A DNA stretch of 64,000 nucleotides from an uncultured Planctomycetales bacterium (GTDB taxonomy: Bacteria > Omnitrophota > Gorgyraeia > Zapsychrales > Fredricksoniimonadaceae): the NCBI GenBank assembly GCA_964572155.1, contig CAZNDZ010000001.1, positions 207,300 through 271,299 on the forward strand, given 5' to 3'. How positions within the stretch are numbered: the first letter of the stretch is position 1; each line of letters opens with the position of its first letter. Shown here piece by piece: positions 30,001 through 38,027 of this stretch. The notes beneath the pieces are model-generated. The model worked only from the letters and a program-made list of their open reading frames with translations, was not told the DNA's origin and made no database searches. A program made the translations under genes and the position numbers.

Positions 30001-30457
30001 CGTTGATCCAATTGACAATCGCTTTGATCTTTTCTTGATCGAATGCTGTCTTGGTTTCAAGCGCTAAGGCGTTTTTCTTTGAGGCATCTAGATTAATTAA
30101 AACATTAATGCCATCTTTGTTATTAGTATTATTAGATAATTGATTTAATAAATAGCGGACAGAGTTGCCAACTTGTGGCGCGGCTGTTTGTGGAGCATCC
30201 ATCCCTGGTTCGACAAAACGCACAACACCGGCGCGTTCGCCCCAGAGAACATTTGGATTATAATTAAACGCCCAGCTGACCTGGTCGGGAATAAAGACTG
30301 TTAAGACGAGAAGTGCGACGGAACGGATCCATAAATTAAAACGGCTTTGAGGAGCAGGTTCTTCAGGGACAAAAACAGCAACGTCCGAAATGGGCTGTAA
30401 ATTTTCGGAAACTTGCTTGCCTTGTTCTGGGTTTTTGTTTTCCCCGTCGTGAATCAT
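1..30457 (-). CDS. Giant multidomain membrane-anchored protein, partial (>=10,152 codons in window; C-terminus beyond window start)
   Basis: ATG at 30457 (minus) gives MIHDGENKNPEQGKQVSENLQPISDVAVFVPEEPAPQSRFNLWIRSVALLVLTVFIPDQVSWAFNYNPNVLWGERAGVV... Hand translation at 30457, ~29650, ~17270, ~16830, ~11590, ~5040, ~4100 and ~1260 all fall in the same register (upper codon position = 1 mod 3) with no stop. The ORF track shows no minus ORF >=65 aa anywhere in 1..30460. That is only possible if one minus frame stays open and lacks an in-window stop. No SD precedes the ATG; an alternative TTG sits at 30502 just after an in-frame TAA (30509-30511). Confidence 0.85.
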   Translation of the reverse strand, partial: MIHDGENKNPEQGKQVSENLQPISDVAVFVPEEPAPQSRFNLWIRSVALLVLTVFIPDQVSWAFNYNPNVLWGERAGVVRFVEPGMDAPQTAAPQVGNSVRYLLNQLSNNTNNKDGINVLINLDASKKNALALETKTAFDQEKIKAIVNWINDEKVHPINCATFSLKDIADSQNKNRSVEELAVLTIATDLMSDLIKVGEPKLKSTLFAINKVGNALGLNYVSVKTAREDVLKLNTPFIAHLKGEHFVTVQKVTADKVTVMDLGQSQILDRATLEAKLDGVAYAPDPKTIEGLDFEYIPKALQAFAWGDKWRDRSNELPGFVKDSTVFMNLAITAVSSFIPGIGSGNIALSLAISSFTQTIATICVQNGTCSAGGAFILSSALSMGLSMGLTPEPTVPTNTAASSATSSIGSMWDQLKEAVGNFIDGLKGGGDVVVGGPMSSGVIEAGTLAPLDVAVTPDFMSGVTQAAPVMVGSSNMNAAVVPKLNFYQKFAVGFVAGGATGAVKLAITNAITKKMCGDKECSASKGILKDFLVSAISSLASNVVLRVGSAAFDQATTDENGVSKYQVGKLFGFGTSEQAKSKATGGYVLNDKGEVTEGSGVALEAHLMAQRDVDATLRAQDQYVEGAKNPVGSKPISKEAYVQMVYERESAIFDGIKLDENGNVVIIKPELRGVYARTYTGSFSKVTDWTPESIGTAFNEAFKAEIPGMAGQLGMMAGRLFAYKVAGIKPDSLASQSLGQFMSYTANASADQWMATGSADYLFKGDKGDFWKSNVGQAVKTGLVQGAFSIGFTALQSAIIGKDDKSYSYREKQAKFRTLFFFASSAAAAGLNYYLNNNYLTPEQQQQVASKNGFWSSFVDDLGGNKEKGVQGLMAPGLEMIWGTPYLNNLQSTGNWGSGKNFVAYADTMAGITGINVDWVLKANQIEKDLKAQAAAEGKPYDRRAFVIALWQQRLFQPGLISNDHISSSLASNIYDNIKAIAVEIPMSAVINKPVVMAGLVQIGVKINPTLLSGTIAENGDNEFSAPQVLAIKEPESKDDASAAPAWKTAFSKIQSMSDWGLNYRGYAHFFTENDVAPEAIANGSAPKYLDINMISSADCKDGKCVMSGFGGKDSFRLEAIQNKNNGQFVFNEFMADITRKNYRKFDLTFGDGQSFGLTEKDEESKAKFTTNANEAIRNAKGQVVLGGSSINEGFQRDLGLAGVNIIDRQIIGTQELTNTYSKNPLTGISGDILKIYDSSNNGAYGGQWDQNDPKKARNGATQVVSLGGGEASWIQSDLNEANGQMSKGWSYKASTDSFNQFGFLKVNGKMTDVSEKLYGVKNKLSAMTEDAGEFDPAIVAAINKSKGSILEGINQEVLSAIYSEDSVKFVNSMKGVNATRQTMNYGAGESETNSNVFSLTGTLENGKDPNKGRVYSSLLTFSPSFEKNNDLTVVRSRGEGVGDTSVYMPNLSGSQYARIDGVNINGNRRTGGEIIGGQVLTLSNGKNGFIKETPDVIAMMSDVNYKQNKTDLSEAAVPADEYGKNLSKAAGSDGSVAERALLEGKSARGLASFSQGDASVDDKGNWRFIYNDATGTFVDNKDGRPEMFTATAGGTFDVNGKSYNQRMVIGENGVFTNHGVFRYKDAQGKEDVLTGTNSDYSFNGAIAKATNQYVVVGKDGSVNRYNLNGSDVSKSQLSEQFAKGGEENVLPALISGSAPTIRFEKGFKKESKLVDDVSVFGPQGLEAKLKQETKIQSEVEQELVLTATGDKREAGSAIEGFNTVAGKVKNIAGSVYLDGVQTAILMPHVKKVMEDGERSNVYETNAAFITRDGKKTLGSRWDMINLTKNSYYLKIAADQKGGTGGASTLEKNENDPNTLVKLDGSLNANGEYTPVQVNGVNDKKVATEFLGKYSGQYEDNRMSGAGLTDGYLGFTDDWSKGTNSLAQDTHYIRILSDNNLARADGSVLMTNAKEGRPQIGVDIIDGKWFVDHGTLTKIPNKFDIKNGAIKTFIIAKYLDYKPTLVLSKSFDATETDRKKAYDTTLSKFTVEANGGPDSYMFMEDNGDVFVPAWMRGVKAYGTEQQINSKNGKTLNAKLDGFKRDGSGLVSKSWILGTGDVSDKNVTNKKPSEEKSNSKAVAAVNGITIDQNLEANPSDKNNPLKAKANPLSVIENNLANPKFKAKNVNVLGIRGGIGDEAVYSTVSIKDLRNAKKPTNVNGVEEAGVLNVANAVLNSNSTTSKLFFKIGDGSLTHDLSQTKAFTLSRNVTEAAPLNSQRDTVVKDEAKGVDLTVKSNVDLARKAGEADALVMLIDMPTYMTPTGSKVIGGHLQLLGTESLVARVNNLTVDGQTIIAGQDGKKWTNMNIVEPLNVNSKGAFTGLIDTNFNLSEAKAGDFNVTSGKIETFTPQTTNAQGLMTGLSGVYDAKAVGLGFLTTDDEWKAAGNTDTRGRAWGFRFIGSLADTSTINTKPTDPTSTQKPENKVEQVLKQKFETFGLTKEEAYKALAGQGYGIHNIKDVELTKMADGKVGVNILYEKSAMKSSFAVIDAKGIPQEEGKPKVSEKDYVAKARLVTPDYALLTGDGSVNDKGKKNELLVAFNQENGSFSSTAGTATKVDYNNAVYGFSAQDGDKVNHVMYRMNEDKYGNVSFALQNVAVTNASGSANNDLSGYYSGKDVKVITGTDINSGQHKVLVVAKDDSFLRQYFKGSDSLEEGEFTRRANQAFDLTTGKAITAPMTIKTGDNEYWSVLAHDVFKERTQFSQFFTDGYKGEGRQTIFKDRLRNYFGASEQLGDSLDVSNISILGGANAALVLAGGVGMVTKGVAATANAAKAMPLANALEGGISARLLTGAAQDILKASVASEISGTGKLVTSANAISNLGKTAIVGNVAGFGLGGVIGGVNMYANGASFDDAMVTAVNVAKANGVFSGGLAFAARGVAGADGWIATTKLLNNDTRFAKFLVNDSMAASTLRTIGSAIPSSLGGAAINTLRGGIDYNGSWSDYFTSQNFAKDAGVGLALGAGFGTVKALAAAKNVGVSPWVNGAGYGAISVGGGLINDGGEYTFSKLGRDLAIGTLTGRYLVNGASTWAGSNLFRQTAARFGTKEAIATKELSNSIPAIAKIKDSAFYKAVSPTLSQPIVAGSAIGGGVGALTWARSDEQGVESFLKYTAGGAAIGAIAGSGALRYAFSHPTIINAAGQKTPAILSKTQIAAQVGTGMGLGATAGFAISFADAKLKGADVLDSRRLNHMLYGAVAGAGLSSLSLMRQGMNNWAQTGKWSSSPVGDMSMLQRIAQNPMIVPRLSVVGATDFGLMMPAWSMIDVPVRVIANGGTVESAYQEHFATNLMTGQAIEPGDLMKKLARDVSGGMEMGRTIGVLLPLGQMPLKAFTEGASKYEAQAYNFIATKGHALPITILQLDATENIAHSVLVKDKDLQKRLRDEGVELAKIQGYTNALDIEYSADAYAAAKIQEKAQTIAFYSLMLKPAGATEAQTAIADARLAMSQGRSIDAQSSINRAMALSGKNNTEAEFLNYTNSLSRATELEKTATTATSDKKADINKQAQDIRDTAYKTLMDKVASITGTEARGDALTLAALAEGAKAADLVSRGFTAEVADKNPNIANVTGPTLAVAATEVGLAYRAQDNYLEQAANAYQGKLGALGKLNAGYTNIQQFKNAIPVERIVNQIRYAASQNKFEDMAKFAKELIAIPEHAVRGNLLLAQAKTRNIEALKKENATTNKTEIERLQTEAVVALEAANKNLAESKNRDDINNVTQRADILTQQAQIESARNESSTEAGIKFLGERISIAPKDAAAYIAKIKILSNNPAEGGRISIDAVVETAKKNGANHIETISRLAAQESSTYYQRSIRTLLEHRVRDSKHLEQAISLATEGLSRDESNLSLRLMRASAMMERSGGRETAEIRQDLDVAQKQLDGISLFESPQLKSTLNTLEGQLAIREGAARPENEAGEFYTKAYEHFSKAVEVEGNSATAGQLYNKALALHLVEASGLKIEAAQPVDAILREAIAKEDSKTDLQIRQLQVLRGDVAVVAIGAKDNSIQKADDTQRRASAAEIVDVANQSEATSVRTLNDKQGNPTTVIRYYKNADAAQMLGKDGAFVVLSHPDGIREVIIVAKDSNAALHEMRELRATRGIELAENGSIKNLDASTMDLLGLKQTPEGLKSNKDPHDIAAAMYGASAQRGVSESRAPPKELPSDVRVVNIGAADNALVATPVRESTEARQQQKLAKTEVEALIGRFTARDARNTLTTDIVAKTIGLAGHGDTRGEVVKTEDIYMQGFGVEAPKLATKEAREQAIAETKLREEAEFRALQVVNTPTYDVTKIVERALQEYRKSKGESTQAAAEKPTPQTKEEQSFVKAVRTKLETKQSGSKQTTGEIMHTFFKNWHETLAKPAKDFKGLEFNAGQTAVVERLIDFTLSSKPKDSAMMAAILNMGGGKTDIVDQLMPIIKSNTDKQVILVTQDNLTSKYEKDEYRDGFEVSTIKSVGDKFEINDPSKVIVMSYTQAKMVDLARKTVEGGSKEVNPFKNAIVFADEAHLFYTSPAMIIGGSHDAGVAKVREWDERVVDGAKIKERERDTFGALVRIMGNLDKLMRASGPANLQKNTPNKKQGIRTLSDSHELSKDMMDALWKESAKDIQTYFGAESVEKPESFARYAEAAAWLHRAIENKTIRFEVKDDGRVLVYDPYEITANGERALNRLFSDKDGVNALAKVILAHYANEKASGTELAGGSLKILENGRINDNGLQLWARHVDGKESVKSTGADVLELVRASGGRTVMLTGSPGESTQAMRNMGTEFYQLHEAPKFKDFEYKVRVMALPSDKAGNVDLAYEAALKDVAKRYQEAYERGENDTALLINTSMLTSLIDRYRLEKDGGEAKIKSFLESAGIKADDIFIYKPENATDGVGKAVGATMKERVGTIEIKQADVNQYRKANGGMSYETALKAVAAKAAREKIGQMVVLTSMTEGVNPTFGRNMKLDVRVEKVDGSVEAKSVVVDNVIQAKHVIIGARAESSLLQTMARFGSYVKDSIFDRANKRTNAKETEVLLLLDADIHLSDAQKARLDRIQQSKAPVAQKQIELRKQLEIIAQERSEDLAIRGSMDVVVEAAVNKAVAQTEQVNRERAIAHNTENVAGQHEQIVDGKTVRVRENQALIHRSDGTALIVDKNPVAITEKTTDRYVVVGANKVTFDSNQSFGDYGQVTLENSVWDKETGKVYSLEEWNRSDTPVFSHIITEQDVLRTNADKGFDVNTASTEKRLVMIAVKPEGADYVGQYTSQVVDTNTNQTFEITRQAIYNANYHGVKFGPEVTITQKDTNKEIVNTTTYRATPGSVQGTKEEYLTLHNIENDAVEAVLMEGQLMRLADKARLETTAKLRVFFDKERGGDDLVIRREWSFDQATKKLKNEKTTLVNPGRSLRNDLVAFESTDKLERKDNNSNHEQIWEVKAKNGDIKAILINGAVARVSNDSNGQKVAVQAKYATKAVVSYEGKNVTVSLPTEHRYEFSTENNTWQDKEVVVATSAFEDFKAGDVIKNGGVYSDTGKLKAVKFIDQIATIDAAGDVVIPDTNIWQSNLQTLGFDPKTVAQQGMKIASKEMIAKIKTYEDDLRYANQRRDVLSGNENAAPEPLAELIFKIKEVTARHGIDSVVTIDGAPVENVKNAAELVQHLKTLPADKKGSMPVLEFKNNNGVNNRLAGMIRTLMGQNVTENGFREQAEQQFYLADEAQPEQKDAVIAEAKQQVEALLQNKNMRVAFDPSMEMKNSAGLADNKTLSLGTNAMLYVLGMGWKVAEAGVPDHEIAHIFDRAARMAKVAPMIAGPSRVDIHNDLNKGLNRGIYNTQGYALGEIYTHIIEGSGKLQNAYRAKELGDEEGFNTFTKEAAKVFERSRNIAAASYQAATGALTVVEQALDKPETDSLIDIHADSETADVVDHANELLDAKIKVLDNQQAPLYDFTLKLPWMYQDRKVVDMDRTEQLKLAKEMLRKTVGMMEHKTALGDILVQVTQKYINDPAMSKLLENVRYSRLTEKDTQTLRMAAAVLKNNVDPVVEELDGSRTFKIKTNGTVNTVNIDKDGQIASVTGDPKVLENEMKDTFADVKAEYAAALHKQSDIWKKVQELADAETISAISTDPPKDKKTFEATAKQIAEGAKAIQAYRIADNIYGFIVDDRIGRQMFSRAEVHQEGQGNEYEAGDIVPAALAGTVGFAGENLTTQTVVAYLNDAKRGNHELTRQEKNFTSLLVNNGLIKETDGKWTVEKPAALFAAHVNAENPDVKNVQIVFAHEMIHSFEAVDPQNEAANKKSIKELQAKAVVPMVDAQGKSVKDQDVNLMDVARNFLVLQGYNPNDTQLIERELPAWLADVATMQERVRAYQENKRSVKELQAVLPLIQPEYAAKWKEIEQVFVKNHQDAVERNALNQKMQKDAGLKPVVAAIRQTTVQPQSATAFTPKTYEAKAGDALLSEETVKATIMKMAPTPTQKELGVTAVNYEVKGTLQPVIQSIVVNGTEISPAAFDKIVKAAYPNIKIMQTSNAAMAAVLNDSNDEENVLNAVVPSSVGVVNINTPASNSEQRIKFVEKVSFKEQVTFLAEKFGLDNGLDAFTVRNAKRQIAISPEAAEKALGGKVARIYEKVIQEQTFTVADIEALPTGKLIKSNLARLPNREEQIKFLDNVAVRLGKTPNSVNILNTLKTRPTEENTAFAAWEDIDLTTPLRSSKDNAMVTERDVEHAAGLIYAFRLPKAQETRAIQITSGYGGKPIQENVVQGLLSAFNSADKGTKEIMMAIVEHADAFSNDKLYSEASKIPADKDTKNNVANLIYNNLTKIKNLGERNRISHEIAARALTNLAILKGFPVEVVERFKPVVVDRIAETVPAQLEATTTQGPLTLNDVEVLSVSAPDKKDQLFYRTRLNLYRNAITEEGKQAVIAALEEKLGQKIEVEKPQAQMMADAKQPAVKPGTDDKNRTQRILQIGAIALAAGLAGNSQTIVDGKTAVVPASGNANVAVYDISKPEPTFIGNVIEKTEAVAQAIKESSKGVIEQGDKTLLATKEASQRILDRAAEIKERSQSVRAKIGAAIKEHTLPITLAVAGLMLAVTAWTARVRNKQEPKERTTTEPKFADTKPNFEDTTPNQPKTLAEHNAAAKAQKDMLGRYLTLAKDTGIYKAIIDDVDIRIKLGVMPKATDDQVIAALKATNKKDEIKELIAMKTSLHLVEKVPTKDLKEISKIFAQTAMNDLRALKPEIKVIDQTSVPAILKVNENDRQAIEKAIKVVSGINNPVERLKAEASFPALVELRVKNGIQKWAAQLLNDQKLIEQFAKDNVFVTYREEGIIEKLQMMTGKKFSNDEKQIITQHIKEIRQRDEVMDLWDATRSNPTKENTKAFNKLVLSELAARPSLLKAVLIEASQEIFANSVVYSDTDIDSKIAIPLTLKVARIISDQDELTANVKAIKQLTDSLKTNNEFKSATEKRRKEIFRALVTTLPAYTEQSTANQAMAALKNLLGIEDAATVKPDISETKRVTFAGIISNAFKAPKANVDSAMAPEINREKVTNVAFIKNATPKQLERAILATGLDLWIANNIFEQIQNVRTKGPEAISTVLAGYPALENNDFIKSVTLDGVVEAATFDVNKKAYFAEHNVPVDGDEGKAGIQKVTYEITTSGDVKPVAYKLDTNHPIVVKNRKMFNKVSGNLVFTPEQLASLYKVLKSAEGIDQEVIGKTLAKLNVDQAMIMPEVVTIKGIDEKVLRSTSLDKLKVIFRNMGINDSSRLNIIVEQIRSARSNNIANIMPLLTPYAELNQTTITQLKFNDKAVDVVYVPKTNQYEANYVVPESSEESQAGVQSIDYKVTLDARNQPIVVVDAYNFTKNAQINASLENILKGTIQPNVNVWKVKPAQLAPVFGSLMENAKKHALETLPAIVNVARKAASVHNDTLLAESVRLRSEKQAAPQKDYAQIAPREFKNLRAEVKRADPTISDKSYFNLLMKIGPDFAQTAKTVREQVRAQILDNASIARVLATFDRAQANLDRHNNRAQPVRKEKAQVGSSVVTSSGGITDKWADDKTWVEYKLGKMTDAAMKVQEFYNHRTLKLFGKDFTEADNFAQDVDFTALFELRTYLREQFAPLAWNNKQAIVASLVAMGKGLEKLQYTDRQRVLEQIIGVVLIGDNDSEDVKEMPADIANQTEAIVQAVVAQLGFESTTKQASENSILAVDAQTFNAYRALHLERMDAAMNAAEKAEATQASIQWFMRWKIAQPEAQEIVAALNEGKGFADVKSLLMIERAKPAAIKVAQPVAQEITMPEAATSDDQYQVPVMDQQQDTPNSFGDDFGNGEPAIVPETPMMPAPNVMPPTAPVILNLSEAMSVTKTAMNQEGRIVSDADSAMIGKLVTDTLTYAKDNNITAVLAYSTGSEKRLIKEAIANYPMLSSYYKDKVIEEVISAEDIRMIKASGNPGQYIFLTPEKQSIEHLSEQDVETLYEITGVPGNVITAKALYEAQADNQNFRDNLTGLTNRGGLQKAFNRIINAQVRNAGNERDVIVGVDVDNFKAVNDVFGHGTGDNVLKAVAQALQYRTRTSDVVARYGGEEFVIVLPNIDTEDARAFMTRLLKHIADNVTVPELSNKRNIVNALSKQDRNDTSKPYEALIYQIHLQNAVALKDLKQQFANLGEALDAVNNGQYKLNRWMITISAGTSSIDKQENARTHVSLSESNLILEQHIKVADARMYVIKTNGRNNFNMGDHAMSVDTKAVLVAFDQVVDTVESILGAESNFDADKFKAQVKIARELVKMNIAIAPNAQGKSLSKFMAALSYMAAGAPALILVREENDLTKFFQEPIVPQGSITFQALAEQVGQRIGKDFKLANMDALIKAHQASQNEQHPKGTALDKIKDQIKAREDDVANALNDNDTLKLISLTPRGHLPNQFKDNPEVLAGINNIKQAGVTIVDEIDDVILLETTFIRSAPESVGDNVVLKDLYVQVKKIYAALLKNGEVQFKFAPTKEGLDHKEEMVWNNQQLVPNSLTGENDFLVSEALYKKFAKSDRHLVESILRGLVENIGQRLTVGTNSQGKRQLVPNDRTGRPLFDQIFGQLPYQIVQTLKYNAAHPEDQLKAEDIVVTSHVTDENPVMEIFEGNVTGVSATLSGAEALLQVKTGVGEIVRIGQESNVFEQVADHIKHVEPIAVPESEQFAKVKELAGQIQQGQNSSTRLLALVDGPKAGEDLTAYLGSNGLKAVYLDGTNKDLVTEAVEGTQAGVVYVALPMFAKQFSFKGNLDVVVVNAQRWPTTDLTHGVNRNIRNANDTGNKYILYDAQEVGRSLEYILKEIANIEGLSGIPASLLTDLGNVKALAGSSDDIERLKAVTEYRQLLQRSNSYKHAILTFFRNENSTKAINEWMKIATPAQKELLAPIFFKESAGWYGNTMQELLKVYLSAAEWFRRAHEASIEAAERMRQDAIAILDDKQGTNSDLIAVIKAYDGEIASRRALVVPADQDLQGTPQGLNKLTAYGDKFNEAARLISGILPTNIANYNERPSVDVQAANAAKEQVIAFLNTIGLETSDVTVKTSDIMPNVMAIYNAAKAQGKNNIVRALQPLYSAGQKWQDAQAIYREGNFQQYVKKSEKAFSVAVAAINNLTPEDLKAIVAGSNGAVSPVDALDALGIQSLVTSILTQASIQQLSEKESTLLLTVAKVILTKLNELRTSLKAPSDEEKAASPNSNNTNSDDDSTGGTPAFLKTPILPGPVGTPVSTPTAPASPVAPSMPTPVGPAAAAPMASTGAMPSVTPVNATPESQHRASGEAFASTTQTATPRTQTVSATPRALTGPAAPLGLTYQPTNAQPSVTATTAAPATQAATTGTTNTSTTMPVAPTAAPVTPVTPLTVPIPAAGSGFGSPPMVFGLGTNAYGETTYRIITRADLEGRHNWDTLVKTDKGHDPGRSSVPAISSIASAHVAVNGENLQANAVQAVAAKTVVSVKTAESGLAQATSTSIRSRVVSKVANAARVVGTVVAALFIRDASAAEMPAFNVQTGSIVAEARAVMSKDIMVAALTQAQTGLTSVNAAGTKQDGVVYIGSSASSLSARAVSTATAEGVSARGLSKEPAGDSVLSTVSRGSKGVSSSTLSSGAVRNNSLNVSGNNVPAGTPASENGENSAEK
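760..1320 (-). repeat. Pro/Thr/Ala/Val-rich low-complexity linker in the giant protein
   Basis: Minus-frame translation ...KTPILPGPVGTPVSTPTAPASPVAPSMPTPVGPAAAAPMASTGAMPSVTPVNATPES...TATTAAPATQAATTGTTNTSTTMPVAPTAAPVTPVTPLTVP... The plus ORFs 762..968 and 1137..1682 are its Gly/Ala/Val-rich antisense shadows. Confidence 0.7.
3600..4100 (-). other. RecA-fold-like P-loop NTPase segment (DnaB/KaiC/RadA-like Walker A 'APNAQGKS', Walker B 'TIVDEID') right after the GGDEF domain
   Basis: Verified translation ...ELVKMNIAIAPNAQGKSLSKFMAALSYMAAGAPALILVREEND... About 100 aa later comes ...QAGVTIVDEIDDVILLE... The pattern resembles DnaB 'AARPSMGKT...SLEMS'. The assignment is tentative. Confidence 0.3.
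4230..5010 (-). other. GGDEF diguanylate cyclase domain (GGEEF active site 4694-4708, RxxD I-site) inside the giant protein
   Basis: Verified translation: ...LTGLTNRGGLQKAFNRIINAQVRNAGNERDVIVGVDVDNFKAVNDVFGHGTGDNVLKAVAQALQYRTRTSDVVARYGGEEFVIVLPN... Every hallmark of the GGDEF fold is present in canonical order: LTGLxNR, DxDxFKxxND, GHxxGD, RxxD and GGEEF. Confidence 0.85.
11582..11596 (-). other. HExxH zinc-binding-type motif (VFAHEMIHSFE) in the giant protein
   Basis: Direct translation of the complement of 11561-11600: ...QIVFAHEMIHSFEAVDPQNEAANKK... The motif alone is weak evidence for a zincin-like metallopeptidase. Confidence 0.25.
15500..17300 (-). other. Superfamily-2 helicase-like ATPase module (Walker A GGGKT and DEAH box) embedded in the giant protein
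   Basis: Verified by direct translation: ...FNAGQTAVVERLIDFTLSSKPKDSAMMAAILNMGGGKTDIVDQLMP... (Walker A, complement of 17121-17140). About 93 aa downstream: ...AIVFADEAHLFYT... (DEAH, complement of 16829-16840). Downstream helicase-C-like strings (MLTGSPG, VVLTSMTEGVN, QTMARFG) are from mental translation only. Confidence 0.5.
20400..22200 (-). other. Gly/Ala-rich hydrophobic region (glycine-zipper-like) of the giant protein
   Basis: Translation ...GGANAALVLAGGVGMVTKGVAATANAAKAMPLANALEGG...GFGLGGVIGGVNMY...AIGGGVGALTWA...VAGAGLSSLSL... The plus ORF 21519..22151 (210 aa) is its antisense shadow. Confidence 0.35.
22200..28000 (-). other. ~1,900-aa Asn/Gly/Thr/Ser/Asp/Lys-rich region of the giant protein, predicted beta-rich and extracellular or adhesin-like
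   Basis: My own minus-frame translation is dominated by short polar and beta-branched runs (e.g. ...GSVNRYNLNGSDVSKSQLSEQF..., ...TGTDINSGQHKVLVVAKDDSF...). I saw no long exact repeats. Composition was judged by eye, not computed. Confidence 0.3.
29350..29530 (-). other. Cluster of additional hydrophobic (probable TM) segments after the peptidase domain
   Basis: Mental translation gives ...STVFMNLAITAVSSFIPGIGSGNIALSLAISSF... and ...GGAFILSSALSMGLSMGL... The plus ORF 29385..29612 is the antisense shadow. Boundaries are approximate. Confidence 0.35.
29640..30000 (-). other. C39-like (papain-fold, Peptidase_C39_2-type) cysteine peptidase domain in the giant protein
   Basis: Hand-translated ...EKVHPINCATFSLKDIADSQNKNRSVEELAVLTIATDLM...LNTPFIAHLKGEHFVTVQKVTADKVTVMDLGQSQ... 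This matches the NCGP[TA]SLxM...HxVVVxGxD...VxxxDP order of C39-like domains: Cys in INCATF, His in GEHFVTV, Asp in VMDLG. Confidence 0.45.
30286..30343 (-). other. N-terminal transmembrane anchor of the giant protein (LWIRSVALLVLTVFIPDQV) after a ~38-aa polar N-terminus
   Basis: Direct translation of 30241-30457: a hydrophobic 19-residue stretch flanked by R and D. No cleavable signal-peptidase motif, so a signal-anchor is likely. Confidence 0.6.
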
Positions 30458-30724
30458 AACTGAAATATAACATATTATATGAACATTGCCAGTTTTTGGC
30501 AAATTATTTTACAGATTTATTCTGTTTAGTATCAACGACTTACGTCCCTTTCAAAATATATTTTAAAATACTTTACAAAACGTGGATTTTATGCATAAAA
30601 AAGTATCTATTTTTAGATATTTTGTGTGTAAAAACATAAAAATAAGTAATAAGATTTTATAAAATCTCTAACTTAGCCTCTCTTTTCTAGATATTATTTA
30701 TTAAAATGCTCTTTAATGGCCAAA

Positions 30725-30782: not shown

Positions 30783-30942
30783 AATATGTAACGCTCCCTT
30801 CTTAAGACCCCGTCCTGCGACTTTAAATTTGGTGCAGTAAACTCCATTTCTTAGTGTAAAAGGGAGGTAGCTGAACCAAAAAATTTTTGTGGTTTCCGAT
30901 TAAACTGTTTATGACTTTAAATAACACTTGTGCATTTTAGTC

Positions 30943-30970
30943 TTGACTTTTCTGCAGATGTATGCATAAT
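30943..30970 (+). promoter_or_regulatory. Sigma70-like promoter TTGACT-N16-CATAAT that would start a leaderless transcript at ATG 30978
   Basis: TTGACT at 30943-30948 and CATAAT at 30965-30970. No SD precedes either GTG 30930 or ATG 30978. Confidence 0.3.
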
Positions 30971-30977
30971 AGTCAGC

Positions 30978-32099
30978 ATGCAACGTTACCTATTTGATTT
31001 GATCAGAAACGATCTTGACAGAAAAATTGTCCTTTTAAGCGGCCCACGACAGGTTGGCAAGACAACCATGGCTAAATCATTTTATGTTAATTCTAGCGAG
31101 TACTTTAATATGGACAATGCGCAGGATCGTTTGTTGATCAAAAAAATGGCCTGGAGACGTGACGCTGATTTGATCATTTTCGATGAATTACATAAGATTA
31201 AGAAATGGAAAGGTTGGATTAAAGGAATATATGATTCACATGGCATTCGGCCAAGGCTTTTCGTTACTGGTTCCTCAAGGCTAGATATCCTTCGTAAAGG
31301 AGGAGATTCTTTGGCAGGCAGATTCTTTCATTTCAGGTTACACCCGATATCGATTGCAGAAGTAAAAAATCAGTATGATCCTGCTGAAGCTCTTGACCGC
31401 ATCATGAAATTCGGAGGCTTTCCAGAGCCATTCTTAAATGCAGATGAAATATATACAAAACGATGGCGAAAATCTCATATTGAAACCATCTTAAAAGAAG
31501 ATGTTTTAGATGTTTCCTCTGTTCATGATATTCGCGGGATTGAAACCTTAACCACCCTGCTAAGTAATTGTGTCGGCAGCTCTATATCTTACGAATCTTT
31601 ATCAAGAGACTTGGAAGTCTCTCCGCACACCATCAAACAGTGGATAAAGATTTTAGAGAGCTTATATATTATATTTGTAATTCATCCTTATTCGAATAAT
31701 ATCGCGCGTAGCTTACTAAAACAGCCCAAAGTTTATTTCTACGATACTGGAGCTATTAAAGATGATCCTGGGGCTAGATTTGAAAATGCAGTAGCGTGTG
31801 CTTTATTAAAACGGCTTCATTTTCTGGAAGATGCGCTTGGCGAGAAATGTGCTTTGAATTATTTAAAAGATAAAGAAAAAAGAGAGGTTGATTTCATCAT
31901 GGTGCGTAATAGTAAGCCCGAATCATTAATTGAGGCGAAACTCTCTGACACTAAAACATCTTCGATTAACCACTTTGCTCAGTTTTTTGATAAAGAGGTT
32001 TCAAAAATATTGCTCGTAAAAAATATTGAGCGAGAATTGTTTCTCGAAGGTGTTCATGTTAAACGTGCGGATGTGTGGTTAAGTAAATTGGAAGCTTAA
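30978..32099 (+). CDS. AAA+ superfamily ATPase of the COG1373 / DUF4143 family
   Basis: MQRYLFDLIRNDLDRKIVLLSGPRQVGKTTMAKSF... (Walker A) ...LIIFDELHKIKKWKGWIKGIYD... (Walker B), typical COG1373 architecture. The track ORF starts at GTG 30930. The internal ATG 30978 is preferred because the product begins with the family-typical MQRYL... and a promoter overlaps the extension. Confidence 0.75.
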   Translation: MQRYLFDLIRNDLDRKIVLLSGPRQVGKTTMAKSFYVNSSEYFNMDNAQDRLLIKKMAWRRDADLIIFDELHKIKKWKGWIKGIYDSHGIRPRLFVTGSSRLDILRKGGDSLAGRFFHFRLHPISIAEVKNQYDPAEALDRIMKFGGFPEPFLNADEIYTKRWRKSHIETILKEDVLDVSSVHDIRGIETLTTLLSNCVGSSISYESLSRDLEVSPHTIKQWIKILESLYIIFVIHPYSNNIARSLLKQPKVYFYDTGAIKDDPGARFENAVACALLKRLHFLEDALGEKCALNYLKDKEKREVDFIMVRNSKPESLIEAKLSDTKTSSINHFAQFFDKEVSKILLVKNIERELFLEGVHVKRADVWLSKLEA

Positions 32100-32103: not shown

Positions 32104-35100
32104 TTACTGCAAGAATTCTTTGAGATTAGACAGGGGGAGGATGTTGAGGATGATCGGGGTGAGGCCTGGGGCGCTTTGGGTCTTTTGTAGTGTTTCGGGA
32201 GAAAGATTAAATTTAATATCTTGTCCATTGCTAGTTAAGCCTATATCTAAGTCATTAAAATCAATACCGCCGTAGCTATCTTGTTCATTATCAATGACTT
32301 TCTGACTTAACATTGCTTTATCATCTGAAAGAAAGGCTGTTTTTACAAAAATATCTGGGAAACTTTCTTCAAGTTTTGCTCTTGCTCCATCCACAAGCCC
32401 ATCACCAGATATCACAAGTACTTTCTTATTCTGCTTTGCATAAACTTCTAAATCTTGTCCGAGCTTAATACCCGAATCCCTAAGCAAAGCAACATATTTC
32501 CTTTCAAGTGCTATTCTTTCTTGAACTAAAATCACATCTTCTGGTTTTGCTTTTGCCAAAATACTTTCTAATCTTGTAATATCTGCTCCATGGGCCTTAA
32601 TTGCTGCTTCTAATTCAGAAATTGTTCTGGACTTTCTAATCTCATCAAAAAACTTTATGTTCTCCAAAGGTACACCATTTTGTGCCACCCAAAAGGATGA
32701 CCTAACAATAAGTTGATTTAACTTTGTTCTTATTTCTTGTTCCTCGGGGTTTGATGGATGAACCATTTGAAATGTATTTCTACCAACAAATATCTTAGAA
32801 TCTCTCATAACAAGATTCTCCCAATCGCTCATCATTATTGCCCTAATTAATCTTACGGATTGCTTCTTAAGTTCTTCCTCGTTATCCCACTTTTGAGAAC
32901 TAGAAGCAAAGATTGAGTCAATAATCTTTTCGCTTTGTACCCATCGAGCCTTAGCTCTTTCGATATCAAAATCCTTAGAGTTAATCGTAGCTGTAACAAA
33001 GGCAACATTATAAATATCTGGAAATTGTTTTAACTGATCTAGAATTTCCTCAAAATTCTTCTCGGAAGCATTTGCTTCTTTAATTCCTCTTCGGTTCAAC
33101 ATGCGAATTAATTCACCTTTTGTTTCGCTTGTTGTCTTACCACTTGTTGCAATCGTTCTAATTGTATCTCTAACCTCTGGAGAAAACCCTCTGCCGCCAA
33201 CTAATACAATGCTTGGATTTTCCTTCTTCGCCACAACTTCCACCTTCTTTTCATCTTGAGCCTTACTAATACCTCCCGCTAATAATGAACTCGTAGCAAC
33301 TAACGCTTTTCTTCTACTAACTTTATTACTTAACATTGCTCGATCGTCAGAGAGATAGTGAGCCTCTACTACTGCATCGGGTAAATTACTTTCCAAGGCC
33401 GACTGAGTATCTGCAATAAGACCATCCCCAGTGAGAACCAAAACTTTCTTACCTTGTTTCGCGTAATTCTCTAGCTCTTTCGAAAGAATTTCTGAAAATT
33501 GTTTTCCTAATGCAAGATGCTCACGATGAATAGTTAATCTCTCGTCTACTAGAGCAACATCTGATGGACGAACTTTCATTAAAGCATCTTTAAGTCTTTG
33601 GATTTCCATCGCTCTTTTCTTAATAACACCTTCAAGCTCTGCGGAGTTTCTTGCTGCTGTTATCTCATCGAAGAATTTTATATACTCGAGTGGTACATTA
33701 TCTCTTGCTGTCCAAAATGTAGAACGTATAACGTGCTCTTGAATCTTGGCAACCTTATCTTTTGCTTCTGAGGTCGTAGGGATTACCAATTGAACTGCTT
33801 TGCGATCTTTAAAAATGGTTGAATCTCTCATTACTAAATTCTCCCACCCACTCATTACAAGCGCTCTAGCTGCTTTAATTGCATATTGCTTTAACTCGTC
33901 TTCATTGTCCCATTTTCTAGAACTAGAAGCAAAAATTGCATTTATAACTTGTTCACTTTGTGCCCATCTGGTTTTAGCTCTTTCGAGATCAAAATCTCTT
34001 GGATTTAATGCGGTGACCGTAAACGCTACCGTATCAATTTCTTTATATTTTCTTAAAAAACCTAACATTTCATTCATGTTCTTCTCAAAAGCATCAACTT
34101 CTTTTTTGCCTTTTCTTAATAATGCCGTGATTAACTGTGCCTTTGGATCTGTAGAAGCTTTTCCAGTTACAAGAGGAAGAATTGTATCTTTTACCTCTGG
34201 AGAGAACCCTCTTCCCCCAACCAAAACTATACTTGGGCTTTCTCTTTTGCCCACAATCTCCACCTTCGTCAGCATTGGCGTATTGCCATCTCGTTTTGAA
34301 ATAGCGACGATGGGTTTGCCTTCGATTCTTGCGTGGGTTCTGATGGCGTCCATGGCGGCGCGGTATTTAGTGGCGTTCTTTAAGGTGTCTGGGGATATGC
34401 GGACATAGAAAATTTTTCTGTTTTTAAATGCGTCGGGGTTGGCGCGTTTAAGCATGGTCCATGGATCTGCAATGCCATGTAAGACAGCTTCTGTGACAGC
34501 TGTGATCGTCAGCGGTAAGTTGATCATGCCTTTGCCTTGTTCTGTCAAAAGATTCTTGATGGCTGTGGCTGTGGCGTCTAAATTAGCCTCGCCTTGAGCA
34601 AGGGGTTCGGGAACTAAATTTTCATTTTCGCTTTGATAGATAATCACCACATTTGAGTCGGCGTCTTTCGATAAAACTTTTTGTAGATCATCCATGCCTA
34701 GTCGAATTTGAAGCAACTTCTTTTGCATTTTATCGGTGAACTTTAATAATTGAGCAACGCCTTCTTTATCTTTTAACTGAGCGCGTTGTATTGCCTCAAG
34801 CTCTGCCTTCTCATCATCGCTATATCCCTGCATGATAACGCTCTCGATTTTTTGCTCGTCAGAACCAGCAAGAGCTAACACAGTTCCCGCTACAGCGATT
34901 TGACCTGCTCGGCTTAAGAATTTTCTTCTGGTTTCACCCGACATCGCCTTGTCCAACGGAACCGAACCAGAAAAAGCTAAGTTAGCTTCCACAACAAATT
35001 GACGCTTGCCTACTTGCTCTGCGCTCATGGCTTTATTGGTGATGTTAACGGTTTTATCAATATTCCCAAACGACGCCCCGCCGGAGAAATACTTTCTTGG

Positions 35101-36162
35101 AATCGTCTTTTGGGTTAGTGGGTCTTGTTCTTCCTTAATATAGTTATAGGCACCGACTTTGAAGGCTTCGATGTATTGTTGATAGATTTTTTCATTGGTT
35201 TGGTCGTCGTTAAACTTGATGCCGGCGACCTTGTTTTGATTGGCGTAGGCTTGTGAAATGACGCTGTCTTTTAATTTCTTTTTATACCATGTGGCTAAAA
35301 TGAGTGAATTATAGACTTGGCGGACGGTGGCGAAATTCTTGCCTTCGTTGATTTCTCTTTGTAATAGTGGAAGAACTACTTCTCTGATGACATCGGAAGC
35401 GACAAGAGCGGGTCCTGTCACTGAACTATTGCTTTTGTCCTCGCGAAACCCATCCCCCCGTGGGGTAGCAGGAGATGAAGCCATTGATCCCCTTTCGCTG
35501 CGGGTAAAATCAACAGCTTCAGCGCCACCCGCGACGTTCTTTTTTGATGCAAGGTAGTCTTGCTCCATCATAACTTTAAGGGACGATTTGACGATATAAG
35601 CGCTGCCAGATGTTGGGTTTTCGTAGACTTCGGCTTCGCTTGGGACGATCCAGACTTTATTGAAGGTATTGATAGGTACCGTAGCTGTGCCAAAACGCTC
35701 TTTGGCTTGGGCATAGACTTTAGCCCAAAATTCTTTTCCAGTCTGACTTTCTGGATATATGATCGAAGCTGTAAGTTGTTTGAGTATATAGTCTTGCGCC
35801 AAAAGGTCGCGGCCCATTTCGGTTTGGCCGAAGCTTTGGGGCACGATGCGGTCCTTCTCATAAGGGCTTAAGTTAACCCATAAATCGCCATAAGGGGTTG
35901 TGACAGCGGCTAGGAAATATTTAACGAGCTTGGTGGCTTCTGGCTTGCTTACGGGGCTTTTTTGATCGCCTTGGTCTAAGACGAAATCAAAGCGGAATGG
36001 ATCATCGCGGTGAACCTTAATCCCGCGCAAGGTTGGCGCCACAAAAGACGGACTTACATTGACCATGGTCCCTGGTTTTGGCAACACCAAAGAATCTGCC
36101 TTCACAGGCTGGATAAAAGTCAATAAAAAACAAAAGATTAATATTGGGGCTATTCTCTTCAT
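32104..36162 (-). CDS. Secreted 1352-aa protein with a tandemly duplicated ~315-aa module of unknown function
   Basis: Signal peptide MKRIAPILIFCFLLTFIQPVKA|DS. Two paralogous units: aa ~638-950 (KRESPSIVLVGGRGFSPEVKDTI...KKVLVLTGDGLIADTQSALESNLPDAVVEAHYLSDDRAMLSNKV) and aa ~978-1290 (KKENPSIVLVGGRGFSPEVRDTI...KKVLVISGDGLVDGARAKLEESFPDIFVKTAFLSDDKAMLSQKV), ~45% identical by eye. The unit ends faintly resemble the TraB/GumN/Tiki family. Confidence 0.8.
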   Translation of the reverse strand: MKRIAPILIFCFLLTFIQPVKADSLVLPKPGTMVNVSPSFVAPTLRGIKVHRDDPFRFDFVLDQGDQKSPVSKPEATKLVKYFLAAVTTPYGDLWVNLSPYEKDRIVPQSFGQTEMGRDLLAQDYILKQLTASIIYPESQTGKEFWAKVYAQAKERFGTATVPINTFNKVWIVPSEAEVYENPTSGSAYIVKSSLKVMMEQDYLASKKNVAGGAEAVDFTRSERGSMASSPATPRGDGFREDKSNSSVTGPALVASDVIREVVLPLLQREINEGKNFATVRQVYNSLILATWYKKKLKDSVISQAYANQNKVAGIKFNDDQTNEKIYQQYIEAFKVGAYNYIKEEQDPLTQKTIPRKYFSGGASFGNIDKTVNITNKAMSAEQVGKRQFVVEANLAFSGSVPLDKAMSGETRRKFLSRAGQIAVAGTVLALAGSDEQKIESVIMQGYSDDEKAELEAIQRAQLKDKEGVAQLLKFTDKMQKKLLQIRLGMDDLQKVLSKDADSNVVIIYQSENENLVPEPLAQGEANLDATATAIKNLLTEQGKGMINLPLTITAVTEAVLHGIADPWTMLKRANPDAFKNRKIFYVRISPDTLKNATKYRAAMDAIRTHARIEGKPIVAISKRDGNTPMLTKVEIVGKRESPSIVLVGGRGFSPEVKDTILPLVTGKASTDPKAQLITALLRKGKKEVDAFEKNMNEMLGFLRKYKEIDTVAFTVTALNPRDFDLERAKTRWAQSEQVINAIFASSSRKWDNEDELKQYAIKAARALVMSGWENLVMRDSTIFKDRKAVQLVIPTTSEAKDKVAKIQEHVIRSTFWTARDNVPLEYIKFFDEITAARNSAELEGVIKKRAMEIQRLKDALMKVRPSDVALVDERLTIHREHLALGKQFSEILSKELENYAKQGKKVLVLTGDGLIADTQSALESNLPDAVVEAHYLSDDRAMLSNKVSRRKALVATSSLLAGGISKAQDEKKVEVVAKKENPSIVLVGGRGFSPEVRDTIRTIATSGKTTSETKGELIRMLNRRGIKEANASEKNFEEILDQLKQFPDIYNVAFVTATINSKDFDIERAKARWVQSEKIIDSIFASSSQKWDNEEELKKQSVRLIRAIMMSDWENLVMRDSKIFVGRNTFQMVHPSNPEEQEIRTKLNQLIVRSSFWVAQNGVPLENIKFFDEIRKSRTISELEAAIKAHGADITRLESILAKAKPEDVILVQERIALERKYVALLRDSGIKLGQDLEVYAKQNKKVLVISGDGLVDGARAKLEESFPDIFVKTAFLSDDKAMLSQKVIDNEQDSYGGIDFNDLDIGLTSNGQDIKFNLSPETLQKTQSAPGLTPIILNILPLSNLKEFLQ
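32292..33231 (-). repeat. Repeat unit 2 of the duplicated module (protein level)
   Basis: As above; collinear with unit 1. Confidence 0.6.
33310..34251 (-). repeat. Repeat unit 1 of the duplicated module (protein level)
   Basis: Coordinates derived by counting residues in the ORF translation. Confidence 0.6.
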
Positions 36163-36225: not shown

Positions 36226-37164
36226 TTAGTTGCCACCCAGCTTTTTAAGCGGGTTATTTTGGAAGAAGTCTAAGAAAACAGGTCCGGCAACCAAGATCCC
36301 AACCACTGGAAAGATAAACAAAAGTAATGGGATGAGCATTTTAAGTGGGGCTTTCATGGCCATTTGTTCGCCGCGGCGAAATCTTGCTTCGCGCATGTCT
36401 TCGGATAAGATGTTGAGCGCTTCACTGACTGATGTTCCCATGCGGTCAGCTTGGATGAGCGTACGCGCAAAAGTGGATAAATCTGGTAAATCATATTTGC
36501 GGGCCATGTCACGCAATGCGTCGCGGCGTGGTTTGCCGACATTGATCTCTTGGATCATGTTGCGCAATTCTTGGATGATCACCGTCGGCGCAGATTTTTC
36601 AATCACATATTTTAATGCCATCATAAAATCAAGACCTGCATTAACGCAAAGCCCTAAAAGATCGACGGTGTCAGGCAAATCGCGCACCATGGCATCGCGA
36701 ATTTTGCTAATCTTCGACTTGAGCCAAAAATCTGGCAGGAAATAACCAGCACCAATCGCGACAAAAATACCCATCATAAAACCTTCGTTGCTGGGCTCGA
36801 TAAAAATAAACACAACCCAAATCAACGCAAAGATCATAGCTTCTTTAAGCAAGATAAACTCTTCGGGACTAATCGGCACGCGTGCCATGCTTAAATCCTT
36901 CGCGATGCGTTGACCCAATGCTCCGACGACAAATGGCTTATTAAACACCGCAAAACGGGTGCTCATGTCTGAAATAACAAAGGCTAACCCTGTTTTCTTA
37001 GCTGTTCTGCTTTGTGGCGCGGCAATGCCTGTAACGGCAGGATCAGCCATGGGATCCATGTTTAGCGTCGGACGAAATACAATTTTAAACGGGATAAACA
37101 TGAGGCCTATGGCCATCACCGTCATGAACGCAAACAATAATCCAACAAATAATAAAGCTGACAT
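36226..37164 (-). CDS. tadC: Tad pilus inner-membrane platform protein (T2SS-F domain), TadC-like
   Basis: 312 aa with an N-terminal TM, a cytoplasmic T2SSF-like domain (...DLPDTVDLLGLCVNAGLDF...) and C-terminal TMs. It follows a TadB-like gene, in the usual tadA-tadB-tadC order. Confidence 0.7.
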   Translation of the reverse strand: MSALLFVGLLFAFMTVMAIGLMFIPFKIVFRPTLNMDPMADPAVTGIAAPQSRTAKKTGLAFVISDMSTRFAVFNKPFVVGALGQRIAKDLSMARVPISPEEFILLKEAMIFALIWVVFIFIEPSNEGFMMGIFVAIGAGYFLPDFWLKSKISKIRDAMVRDLPDTVDLLGLCVNAGLDFMMALKYVIEKSAPTVIIQELRNMIQEINVGKPRRDALRDMARKYDLPDLSTFARTLIQADRMGTSVSEALNILSEDMREARFRRGEQMAMKAPLKMLIPLLLFIFPVVGILVAGPVFLDFFQNNPLKKLGGN

Positions 37165-38027
37165 TAGAAGTCCTTAAATTTAGAAATTTTCCAAATGCTC
37201 AACGCGCCAAGTGTCCATAAGATGATACACGCAACCGTTAATTGTTGTCCCATCGGTGAATCACGCATAACATCAAAAAAATGAGGATTGCTTGACGAGA
37301 CAGCAAAATAGAATAAAACAGGCAAGCCTGTCATGACGACACCTTGGATTTTTCCTTGCACCGTCAATGTGGTTAAGCTTTGTTCAACCTTGCGTCGCTC
37401 GCGGGTGGAGGCAATGATGCGCGAGAAAATAAGCGCCAAGTTCCCCCCTGTTTCACGTGCTAACAAAACAGCGGTGACCACTTGCTGCATCGCTGGTGAC
37501 GGCATGCGCTTATAAAGACGGTTTAAGCTATCGTCCAAGGCAACCCCCATTTTATTTTCACCAAGGACAATACCAAATTCTTGACGCAGGGGATCAGGCA
37601 TTTCTTCGACGACAGACTCAATGGCTTGAATCAAACTCAGACCACCGCGGAACGAACTCGACATGATCATTAACGCATCCATCAATTGATTAGCAAACAT
37701 ACTCTTGCGTTTTGAAATCAAGTAACTTAAATGCACGCGAGGGATAAACACGCCTGCGACAATGCCGACGACAATACCGGCAAATTTCATGTCCGGTGGC
37801 GCAAAATAAACTGCCAAGCCGCCCAACAACAGCGGCACATAAATGATCATCTTCTGCGACTTTTTGATCTGATCTTCATTTAGAACAGCGTCGAACTTTA
37901 CAGCAAATTGTGCCTGACTTTTTTGATTCAAGGCAGCTGCGCGCTCCATCATGAAAGGGACAATGAAAATGACCACGATCATGACAGCCGCAAAAACAAG
38001 TATTAATCCGACGAACAAACTAAACAT
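37164..38027 (-). CDS. tadB: Tad pilus inner-membrane platform protein (T2SS-F domain), TadB-like
   Basis: 287 aa, TM-T2SSF-TM architecture (...MPDPLRQEFGIVLGENKMGVALDDSLNRL...). The stop overlaps the tadC start at 37164. Confidence 0.7.
   Translation of the reverse strand: MFSLFVGLILVFAAVMIVVIFIVPFMMERAAALNQKSQAQFAVKFDAVLNEDQIKKSQKMIIYVPLLLGGLAVYFAPPDMKFAGIVVGIVAGVFIPRVHLSYLISKRKSMFANQLMDALMIMSSSFRGGLSLIQAIESVVEEMPDPLRQEFGIVLGENKMGVALDDSLNRLYKRMPSPAMQQVVTAVLLARETGGNLALIFSRIIASTRERRKVEQSLTTLTVQGKIQGVVMTGLPVLFYFAVSSSNPHFFDVMRDSPMGQQLTVACIILWTLGALSIWKISKFKDF

Follow-up and report, generated by a model that had tools for sequence, protein, structure and literature searches.

We analyzed a stretch of 64,000 nucleotides (nt) from an uncultured Omnitrophota bacterium (contig CAZNDZ010000001.1 of assembly GCA_964572155.1; here, the window) and focused on the open reading frame (ORF) at positions 32104 to 36162 of the reverse strand, whose product of 1352 amino acids (aa) is referred to as the target. 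The target has the leader, N-domain, and C-tail of a large Omnitrophota-specific protein family, and between the latter two it carries a module that is duplicated in tandem. The reading that we tentatively favor is that the target is a Sec-exported scaffold of this family, which displays a private, fast-evolving, duplicated, and non-catalytic module for use in cell contact and is probably co-expressed with the adjacent Tad genes.

Family scaffold and duplicated insert

Using sequence searches, family alignments, and structure prediction, we divided the target into the following parts.

32104..36162 (-): target ORF, ATG start, 1352 aa plus stop codon
36097..36162 (-): Sec-type signal peptide, aa 1-22, MKRIAPILIFCFLLTFIQPVKA with D as the next residue (read from the sequence and from Kyte-Doolittle [KD] hydropathy)
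34963..36096 (-): conserved family N-domain, aa 23 to ~400, with the core ending in PRKYFSGG at aa 355-362 (homologs, alignment, and AlphaFold2 [AF2] model)
34861..34953 (-): first boundary, D404-K-A-M407, followed by the basic, moderately hydrophobic TRRKFLSRAGQIAVAGTVLALAGS (aa 411-434)
34267..34827 (-): "mid" region, aa 446-632, common only to syntenic orthologs
33316..34266 (-): module copy 1, aa 633-949, end motif LSDDRAML (BLASTP and profile search)
33256..33336 (-): inter-copy boundary, D940-R-A-M943, followed by LSNKVSRRKALVATSSLLAGGISKA (aa 944-968)
32296..33246 (-): module copy 2, aa 973-1289, end motif LSDDKAML, which contains D1281-K-A-M1284 (BLASTP and profile search)
32107..32295 (-): conserved family C-tail, aa 1290-1352 (GGIDFN...NGQDIKFNL...APGLTPIILNILPLSNLKEFLQ; family alignment)

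Using aa 1-632 of the target as the query, with scoring of up to 8000 candidates, we identified at least 2775 homologous proteins. Among the 120 homologs listed, all had E values below 1e-119 and 43-59% identity to the target, and all named homologs were from Candidatus Omnitrophica. Most homologs covered only the first ~57-66% of the query and continued into unrelated C-terminal parts. Some locus-tag prefixes recur within one metagenome-assembled genome (three HQL15, two HQL14, and two KGJ11), which supports that a genome can contain several paralogs of the family. Of 121 family sequences, including the target, 75 contain both the N-domain end (RKYFSGG) and a GGIDL tail, while the others look truncated. 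The tail has a length of ~55-60 aa and the consensus GGIDL...IKFHLDPAMLxQLQNAPGFxPVIINIQPxxxLxxFLG. Between N-domain and tail, source names and precomputed Pfam annotations list GGDEF, HAD, TPR, HPr, guanylate kinase, methyltransferases, and other domains, and most inserts have no annotation; in nine members, we confirmed guanylate kinase, HPr, NUDIX, REC, GGDEF, HAD, GNAT, GT1, and CheR domains. Thus, in the family plan a Sec leader is followed by the N-domain, then by a hypervariable insert, and finally by the C-tail; the family is specific to the Omnitrophota.

The target follows this plan throughout. Its N terminus, MKRIAPILIFCFLLTFIQPVKA followed by DS, has the n-, h-, and c-region layout of a Sec signal ending in VKA before D, with a KD hydropathy of 1.94 across aa 4-22, and equivalent leaders ending in AxA are conserved throughout the family. 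Hydropathy analysis of the target gave no transmembrane helices. In agreement with the initial annotation, which had noted a Sec signal from the sequence alone, the target is most likely exported by Sec. The N-domain has the family signature LPxPG...WVNLSPYEKDR...TEMGRDLL...PRKYFSGG after the leader and, at about aa 205-250, an insert of variable sequence and low complexity. The extreme C terminus matches GGID(L/F)...IKF...PGxxPVIxNIxPxxxLxxFL; aa 1298-1352 are 30-60% identical to 29 family tails and 55-56% identical to the tails of the syntenic orthologs. An alignment of 69 N-domains, which by construction has the target carrying every invariant column, contains 59 such columns, of which 55 lie inside aa 60-362. 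The region before the modules had been described initially as an anonymous N-terminal region of ~610 aa; it comprises 632 aa, and its first ~400 aa are the family N-domain. Read against this plan, the duplicated module is the target's variable insert in a conserved scaffold.

We found no match to the whole target in Pfam, NCBIfam, or PDB sequences, and none to the N-domain in these databases or BFVD. An AF2 model of the target N-domain joined to the tail, based on the 69-sequence alignment, had a predicted template modeling score of 0.69, with high predicted local distance difference test (pLDDT) values over aa 30-360 except in the variable insert and in a dip near aa 100-110. Because the last 30 residues of the tail reached pLDDT values of 80-93 despite a disordered linker before the tail, the C-tail probably docks on the N-domain to form one scaffold. 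Foldseek searches with this model gave nothing similar in PDB (best E value 0.26) or BFVD. A literature search, which was weak on subscription journals, returned no description of the N-domain/C-tail family, of the boundary motif described below, or of the duplicated module; all three are absent from Pfam, NCBIfam, and PDB and are apparently undescribed. About 100 database proteins of 39-112 aa (P0124-P0223) comprise no more than the family C-tail. The one tail-only ORF that we inspected (L039, 6001-6210) comes from a nanopore contig on which many genes are fragmented, and we consider these small ORFs to be probable frameshift artifacts rather than a separate tail gene.

The initial annotation had also proposed an internal tandem duplication, with a pairwise alignment as the way to check it. 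BLASTP of aa 621-960 against aa 961-1300 gave a single collinear alignment (aa 633-949 against 973-1289) with 163 of 317 positions identical (51%), 72% positives, one gap, and an E value of 1e-117, confirming the duplication. Both copies have the module end motifs quoted at that stage (937-944, LSDDRAML; 1278-1285, LSDDKAML), while copy 1 starts with (R)ESPSIVLVGG and not with the quoted (K/E)NPSIV. At the nucleotide level, the copies are 60% identical, and the proportions of synonymous and nonsynonymous differences (pS and pN) are 0.77 and 0.30, respectively. Because synonymous differences are saturated, the duplication is old, and a pN far below pS fits with purifying selection acting on each copy. 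What was duplicated is an entire bounded unit consisting of a leader-like segment, the module, and a D-x-A-M boundary.

To identify relatives of the module, we used HMMER for an exhaustive search of 1.84 billion cluster representative proteins with a profile of both copies. Four matches were obtained: the target itself, P0002, and two low-complexity repeat proteins (P0122 and P0123) that matched marginally and were discarded. P0002 (1009 aa) has a single module copy at 617-924 (E value 2e-28). In addition, the syntenic ortholog P0001 has a much more diverged module, which aligned pairwise in hhalign over 162 collinear columns with an E value of 0.0018; by BLASTP, aa 1168-1352 of the target match aa 821-1018 of P0001. 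A word-index search with module copy 1 among 5.8 billion proteins gave no match, searched separately the modules and the mid region had no Pfam match even at E values up to 10, and a PDB search with a profile of four module sequences gave none. These results bear out the earlier remark that the module is not recognizable, and they support that it is a near-orphan and a lineage-specific insert of one small clade.

The four module sequences share 15 invariant columns and no more, and few of these are polar. We considered whether the glycine-rich VGGRGFSP that follows strand 1 might be a loop for nucleotide binding and rejected this, as the stretch is not kept in P0002 and P0001. A model built from a two-sequence alignment had a pLDDT of 64 and predicts five short hydrophobic strands with long helical inserts between them. 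Because no catalytic-looking residues are kept, evolution is fast, and codon composition is foreign, the module is most likely an alpha/beta, non-catalytic binding module.

The target gene is a compositional mosaic, because GC content at third codon positions (GC3) is 0.27 in both module copies and 0.46-0.48 in the upstream part of the gene (N-domain, 0.48; mid region, 0.46); in the tail, it is 0.43. The break between the N-terminal 632 codons (34267-36162) and the modules (32296-34266) is sharp (z = 7.3). For comparison, GC3 is 0.50 in TadB/TadC, 0.34 in the adjacent AAA_14 gene, and 0.33 in the giant ORF described below; gyrA, with a value near 0.49, is similar to the Tad genes. In the gene for P0002 (locus L001), which is in a GC-richer genome, GC3 similarly falls from 0.55-0.68 to 0.33-0.40 at the start of the module. 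Identities between the window and three syntenic loci amount to 79-89% for TadB/TadC, 64-70% for the N-domain, 55% for the tail, 31-36% for the mid region (orthologs in L002 and L003), and 27-29% for the module, suggesting that the module evolves far faster than the scaffold or the neighboring Tad genes. The mid region is also fast evolving and has a normal GC3; therefore, rapid evolution alone does not explain the low GC3 of the modules, and the simplest reading is that the module was acquired or exchanged by recombination.

The D-x-A-M boundary motif

The target contains D-x-A-M at aa 404, 940, and 1281, and N-K-A-M upstream at aa 376-379. The three D-x-A-M sites bracket unit 1 (leader-like segment, mid region, and module copy 1) and unit 2 (leader-like segment and module copy 2), so that D404KAM lies at the junction of N-domain and insert and D1281KAM at that of insert and tail. 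The same arrangement is common in the family. Among the 75 full-length members, 62 have D-x-A-M within 80 aa after the N-domain and 37 have it within 40 aa before the tail, while it occurs only once within an N-domain; from residue frequencies, ~1 per 10,000 positions is expected by chance. The first position is D much more often than N, N more often than S, and rarely E, and different sites and genes do not use the same codons for D and A. Because the codons vary while the first position follows this order, the constraint acts on the peptide. Because of the differing codons, we also rejected that D-x-A-M is a DNA-level attachment site or a target-site duplication. No Shine-Dalgarno sequence was visible upstream of the Met as might be present at an internal start, an observation that is not decisive.

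In the same regions of family members, a Tat-like (twin-arginine translocation) segment follows the D-x-A-M Met four times more commonly than other Met residues (Fisher P = 0.007), and a Sec-like segment follows it two times more commonly (Fisher P = 0.03). Textbook examples of leaders after this Met include MMTRRDFLRAAG..., MKRVVSRRKFLKTASLGG..., and a lipobox-like ...FSLVGC. The two leader-like segments of the target, with TRRKFL at aa 411 and SRRKAL at aa 949, are of this kind and are internal, whereas a Tat substrate has an S/T-R-R-x-F-L-K leader at its N terminus with a conserved twin arginine. P0001, P0002, and the closest ortholog, that of L003, all keep the hydrophobic segment of aa 411-434. 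Because the L003 protein has KK in place of RR and no D-x-A-M at this spot, the leader-like segments are unlikely to be working Tat signals. Transmembrane helices, which would leave the insert in the cytoplasm, were rejected since the KD hydropathy of these internal segments (1.34 and <0.7) is under the usual threshold of 1.6. This low hydropathy also speaks against the segments being working leaders.

Family inserts vary in how complete they are. A guanylate-kinase insert starts at profile position 2 only 14 aa after the D-x-A-M Met, while another insert comprises no more than a GT1 enzyme's C-terminal domain, and a HAD match is seen only from profile position 65 onward. As several inserts are only parts of proteins, we discarded the idea that inserts are, as a general rule, whole captured genes. 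The tail's own conserved helix begins with DPAML. D-x-A-M may cap a helix or serve in docking, may be a site of processing, or may be left over from gene capture.

D-x-A-M is also frequent in the giant ORF of the window, which has 10 occurrences where its composition predicts 1.4, all of them after residue 2900 (aa 2914-8757), while seven other large proteins of the window together have none compared to 0.7 expected. For 18 further giant ORFs from Omnitrophota, the N-terminal 2-3 thousand residues were available, and these were not enriched in D-x-A-M.

Position next to the Tad locus and candidate functions

The target gene is flanked by the following genes.

37164-38027 (-): TadB (T2SSF, PF00482), upstream of TadC
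36226-37164 (-): TadC (T2SSF, PF00482), immediately upstream of the target
30930..32099 (+): AAA_14/DUF4143 ATPase gene, convergent, ending 4 nt from the end of the target
2..30508 (-): giant open frame of at least 10169 aa, downstream of the target and running off the window

The genes of the window comprise, in order, dnaA, dnaN, gyrB, and gyrA; genes for a GST, a CN-hydrolase, and malate dehydrogenase; genes for a SurA-like peptidyl-prolyl isomerase (PPIase), RcpC/CpaB, a secretin-TonB_C protein, a ParA-like/T2SSE ATPase, and pilin-like proteins; unannotated ORFs of 493, 463, and 1158 aa; and TadB, TadC, the target, AAA_14/DUF4143, and the giant frame. This is the conserved locus of the type II secretion system (T2SS)/Tad-like type that precedes Omnitrophota giant genes and has been described (West-Roberts et al., bioRxiv 10.1101/2023.11.21.568195; Seymour et al., PMC10066038); both this type of locus and the giant gene have thus been published. 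As originally noted, the target adjoins the Tad locus, with TadC and then TadB immediately upstream on the same strand. Its placement between the giant gene and the pilus genes also holds, with the convergent AAA_14/DUF4143 gene separating it from the giant gene. The TadC-target gap of 63 nt contains no terminator-like site and the two genes are on the same strand, and for these reasons the target is likely co-transcribed with the Tad genes as the last gene of the operon.

To determine how widely this position is kept, we scanned a genome collection with TadC and obtained 35 Omnitrophota loci with up to 10 kb of sequence on each side. A target-family gene follows TadC only in the three closest loci (L001/L004, L002, and L003). 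The genes for P0002 (L001 = L004) and P0001 (L002) lie directly after two T2SSF genes. L002 has the order TadB, TadC, target ortholog, convergent AAA_14, and a giant gene encoding 15,334 aa. In L003, TadC is 89% identical and the target ortholog is present, with the contig ending where the module would start. In the other 31 TadC loci, no N-domain gene was present in the available sequence of up to 10 kb on either side of TadC. Of these 31 loci, we examined 22, all with downstream sequence; 18 of them have a very long frame (1200-3258 codons, to the end of the available sequence) downstream of TadC, which is the next long frame after TadC in 13 and follows one shorter, mostly opposite-strand frame in 5. 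Two other family members are located among housekeeping genes (suf, moa, murB, and ispH). Given that a family gene follows TadC in the three closest loci and in none of the other 31, the target is a clade-specific addition to the Tad/giant locus and not a core component. This comparison of genome neighborhoods, which the initial annotation had suggested, confines the Tad adjacency to one clade and weakens the accompanying proposal that the target is an effector or adhesin of the same apparatus.

In the reading that we tentatively favor, the N-domain and C-tail would pack into one scaffold from which the insert loops out between the D-x-A-M motifs. In the target, the insert would consist of a leader-like segment, a 187-aa region, and the ~317-aa alpha/beta module, which would have been acquired or exchanged by recombination and doubled, together with a leader-like segment and D-x-A-M, for avidity or a second specificity. 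The gene would be co-transcribed as the last in the Tad operon of one small clade, and the protein would cross the inner membrane by Sec export before being displayed on the surface or released, possibly through the locus's own secretin, and contacting host or prey cells. Several points weigh against this reading. Surface localization and binding are predicted throughout, tail docking is read indirectly from pLDDT, and the "non-catalytic" assignment leans mainly on weak conservation in four sequences, with a poor model (pLDDT 64). Low GC3 is common to the adjacent AAA_14 and giant genes, so the break within the target gene could be the breakpoint of a larger recombined block. The Tad position is kept in all available close relatives, making a tie to the pilus machine possible within the clade. 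Finally, GGDEF, guanylate kinase, NUDIX, and CheR domains normally need cytoplasmic cofactors, and inserts of this type are awkward for pure extracellular display; they hint at delivery into another cell or at processing.

Processing is central to an alternative that we regard as unlikely, in which the target is a processed polyprotein or a chimera of captured genes and D-x-A-M is a cleavage or junction site between A and M. The layout would then be the N-domain, unit 1 (M407-A942), unit 2 (M943-A1283), and the tail (M1284 to the end), and released units would start at the D-x-A-M Met with leader-like N termini; the same punctuation would operate in the neighboring giant protein. This agrees with D-x-A-M bracketing each target unit, as well as the majority of inserts in the family, under a constraint on the peptide and not the codons, with the enrichment of Tat- and Sec-like segments and the textbook leaders after the Met, with the start of the guanylate-kinase insert, and with the counts in the giant ORF. 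Moreover, cleavage of giant proteins has been proposed, with the cleavage points not known (West-Roberts et al., bioRxiv 10.1101/2023.11.21.568195). The partial GT1 and HAD inserts argue in the other direction, as do the L003 ortholog with its KK and lacking D-x-A-M, the lack of enrichment in the N-terminal parts of the 18 other giant ORFs, and the first-position preference for D, N, or S, which equally fits a helix N-cap such as that of the tail helix. C39 peptidases, of which the giant ORF has a candidate, cut after Gly-Gly, and we know of no protease with specificity for cleavage between A and M in D-x-A-M. A broader version, in which the family is a phylum-wide carrier system that exports cytoplasm-type or leader-bearing proteins and then releases them by this cleavage, possibly into host or prey cells, with the target as a two-cargo polyprotein whose gene adjoins the secretion machine and the giant gene, is in our estimate very doubtful. 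If it were true, the D-x-A-M punctuation would represent the long-sought cleavage points of the Omnitrophota giant proteins.

A dedicated role in the Tad-like pilus/giant-protein apparatus, as substrate, tip adhesin, or periplasmic accessory protein, appears improbable. The target is last in the Tad gene row after a short gap, has the Sec signal that a substrate of a T2SS-like secretin needs, and keeps its position in the three closest loci, of which one also has the AAA_14 and giant-gene continuation. Such a role is difficult to reconcile with the 31 loci without a family gene near TadC, the 18 of 22 examined loci in which a very long frame follows TadC without a target gene, the family members among housekeeping genes, and the published description of the conserved locus, which lists no gene of this kind (West-Roberts et al., bioRxiv 10.1101/2023.11.21.568195).

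The last alternative concerns the module itself and could coexist with the scaffold reading. It holds that the module belongs to the Ere/TraB/GumN/Tiki/ChaN superfamily, either without catalytic activity or in very divergent form, and acts as a pseudo-enzyme that binds a substrate-like ligand; we consider this to be rather improbable. TraB/Tiki-type GxxH motifs carry catalytic His/Glu, reportedly described by Sanchez-Pulido and Ponting in 2013, and a faint resemblance of the module to such proteins had been noted initially. The top Foldseek match of the module model in PDB was the erythromycin esterase EreC (6xcs_A; 293 aligned columns), which belongs to the same superfamily as TraB/GumN/Tiki, and a second EreC entry was 12th in the list. 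The motif guess and the fold match were arrived at independently, and five short hydrophobic strands with long helical inserts are compatible with the alpha/beta-plus-helical-lid fold of this superfamily. However, the EreC match is not significant (E value 0.06, TM score 0.21, probability 0.47, on a model with a pLDDT of 64), and the matches next after it are unrelated folds. The Pfam models TraB_PrgY_gumN and Erythro_esteras did not match the module at E values up to 10, the PDB profile search was negative, and hhalign of the module against the Escherichia coli TraB-family protein YbaP gave a probability of 0.1. The residues likened to GxxH are VGGRGF, VGALTF, and VANQIG in the module and its relatives, and those at the second position are TGDGL, SPGGL, and VKGDVV; neither position contains His or is conserved. 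The resemblance is, therefore, unsupported at the sequence level, and the fold match is a lead at most: while the module possibly has the alpha/beta-plus-helical-insert layout of the superfamily, it lacks sequence or profile similarity to it as well as a conserved His or other catalytic motif.

Related systems and other features of the locus

The family resembles polymorphic toxins (CdiA, Rhs, and MafB) in being a paralogous family with a conserved, export-related part and highly variable parts, in having a short peptide motif at the junction (VENN in CdiA and D-x-A-M here), and in showing signs of recombinational exchange of modules, here the GC3 break at the module boundary. It differs in that the variable part is internal with conserved sequence on both sides, in that inserts include ordinary signaling and metabolic domains, and in that the conserved parts have no detectable homology to known trafficking domains. 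Also, we saw no toxin domain and no adjacent immunity gene; the downstream gene is the convergent AAA_14/DUF4143 ATPase gene.

With the Omnitrophota giant proteins, the target family shares the phylum and, in the window, the locus type, as well as the combination of export signals with cytoplasm-type, largely unannotated domains; the giant ORF of the window additionally shares low GC3 and D-x-A-M enrichment with the target. In contrast, the target has only 1352 aa and no sequence in common with this giant ORF, and it belongs to a separate, dispersed multi-copy family that is outside the conserved locus except in one clade. The target is similar to type II secretion substrates, which are exported by Sec or Tat and expelled through a secretin, in having an N-terminal Sec signal and a gene that adjoins secretin, ATPase, and platform genes, and is different in that this adjacency is limited to one clade. 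To our knowledge, Tad systems do not secrete such cargo, and we know of no secretion signal of T2SS substrates that can be defined from sequence.

Omnitrophota are ultra-small, uncultured, and thought to be predators or parasites. Thousands of exported proteins with one scaffold and near-unlimited inserts are a strong candidate for their host-interaction repertoire, and the family-level pattern, more than the target alone, deserves attention. D-x-A-M provides a concrete boundary site that is also enriched in the neighboring giant ORF; if it marks processing, it bears on the question of whether the giant proteins are cleaved. For the target itself, the module is a private, fast-evolving insert of one small clade and not a conserved part of the pilus/giant-protein machine.

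Several further features of the locus were observed. The published locus contains a Rotamase_2 PPIase, RcpC, a secretin, a GspE-like gene, two GspF-like genes, and many pilin genes with class III signal peptides, followed by the giant gene (bioRxiv 10.1101/2023.11.21.568195; PMC10066038), and the many small genes with class III signals match the window, in which at least eight consecutive small ORFs of 63-136 aa at 43383-46052 (-) have pilin-like N termini (...KGQS(T/L)VEY...). Two pilus-locus genes (47989-50175 and 50156-51910, both (-)) are fusions, of a ParA/MinD-like (TadZ-type) domain with a T2SSE ATPase and of a secretin with a C-terminal TonB_C domain. Just upstream of TadB, 38366-41842 (-) encodes the unannotated 1158-aa protein, which is Cys-rich, has N-terminal hydrophobic segments and no Pfam match, and is 44-52% identical in L001, L002, and L003. 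The giant ORF has a Peptidase_C39-like domain near its N terminus (aa 219-299, about 29600-29860 (-) of the window, E value 1e-9), and a domain of this type at a similar place is reported from other giant proteins of the Omnitrophota. Positions 30502-30474 contain a strong sigma-70-like site, TTGCCA-17-TATAAT. The AAA_14 gene of L002 (8309-9442) is only 23% identical to that of the window, whereas the flanking Tad genes are 80-88% identical, which suggests an independent insertion or very fast turnover.

The genes dnaA, dnaN, gyrB, and gyrA (53816-63702 (-)) are within 10-25 kb of the Tad/giant locus, which places this locus close to the likely replication origin. The Tad locus of V. archaeovorus LiM is at chromosome positions 12382-29832 (Seymour et al., PMC10066038), suggesting a similar placement near the origin.

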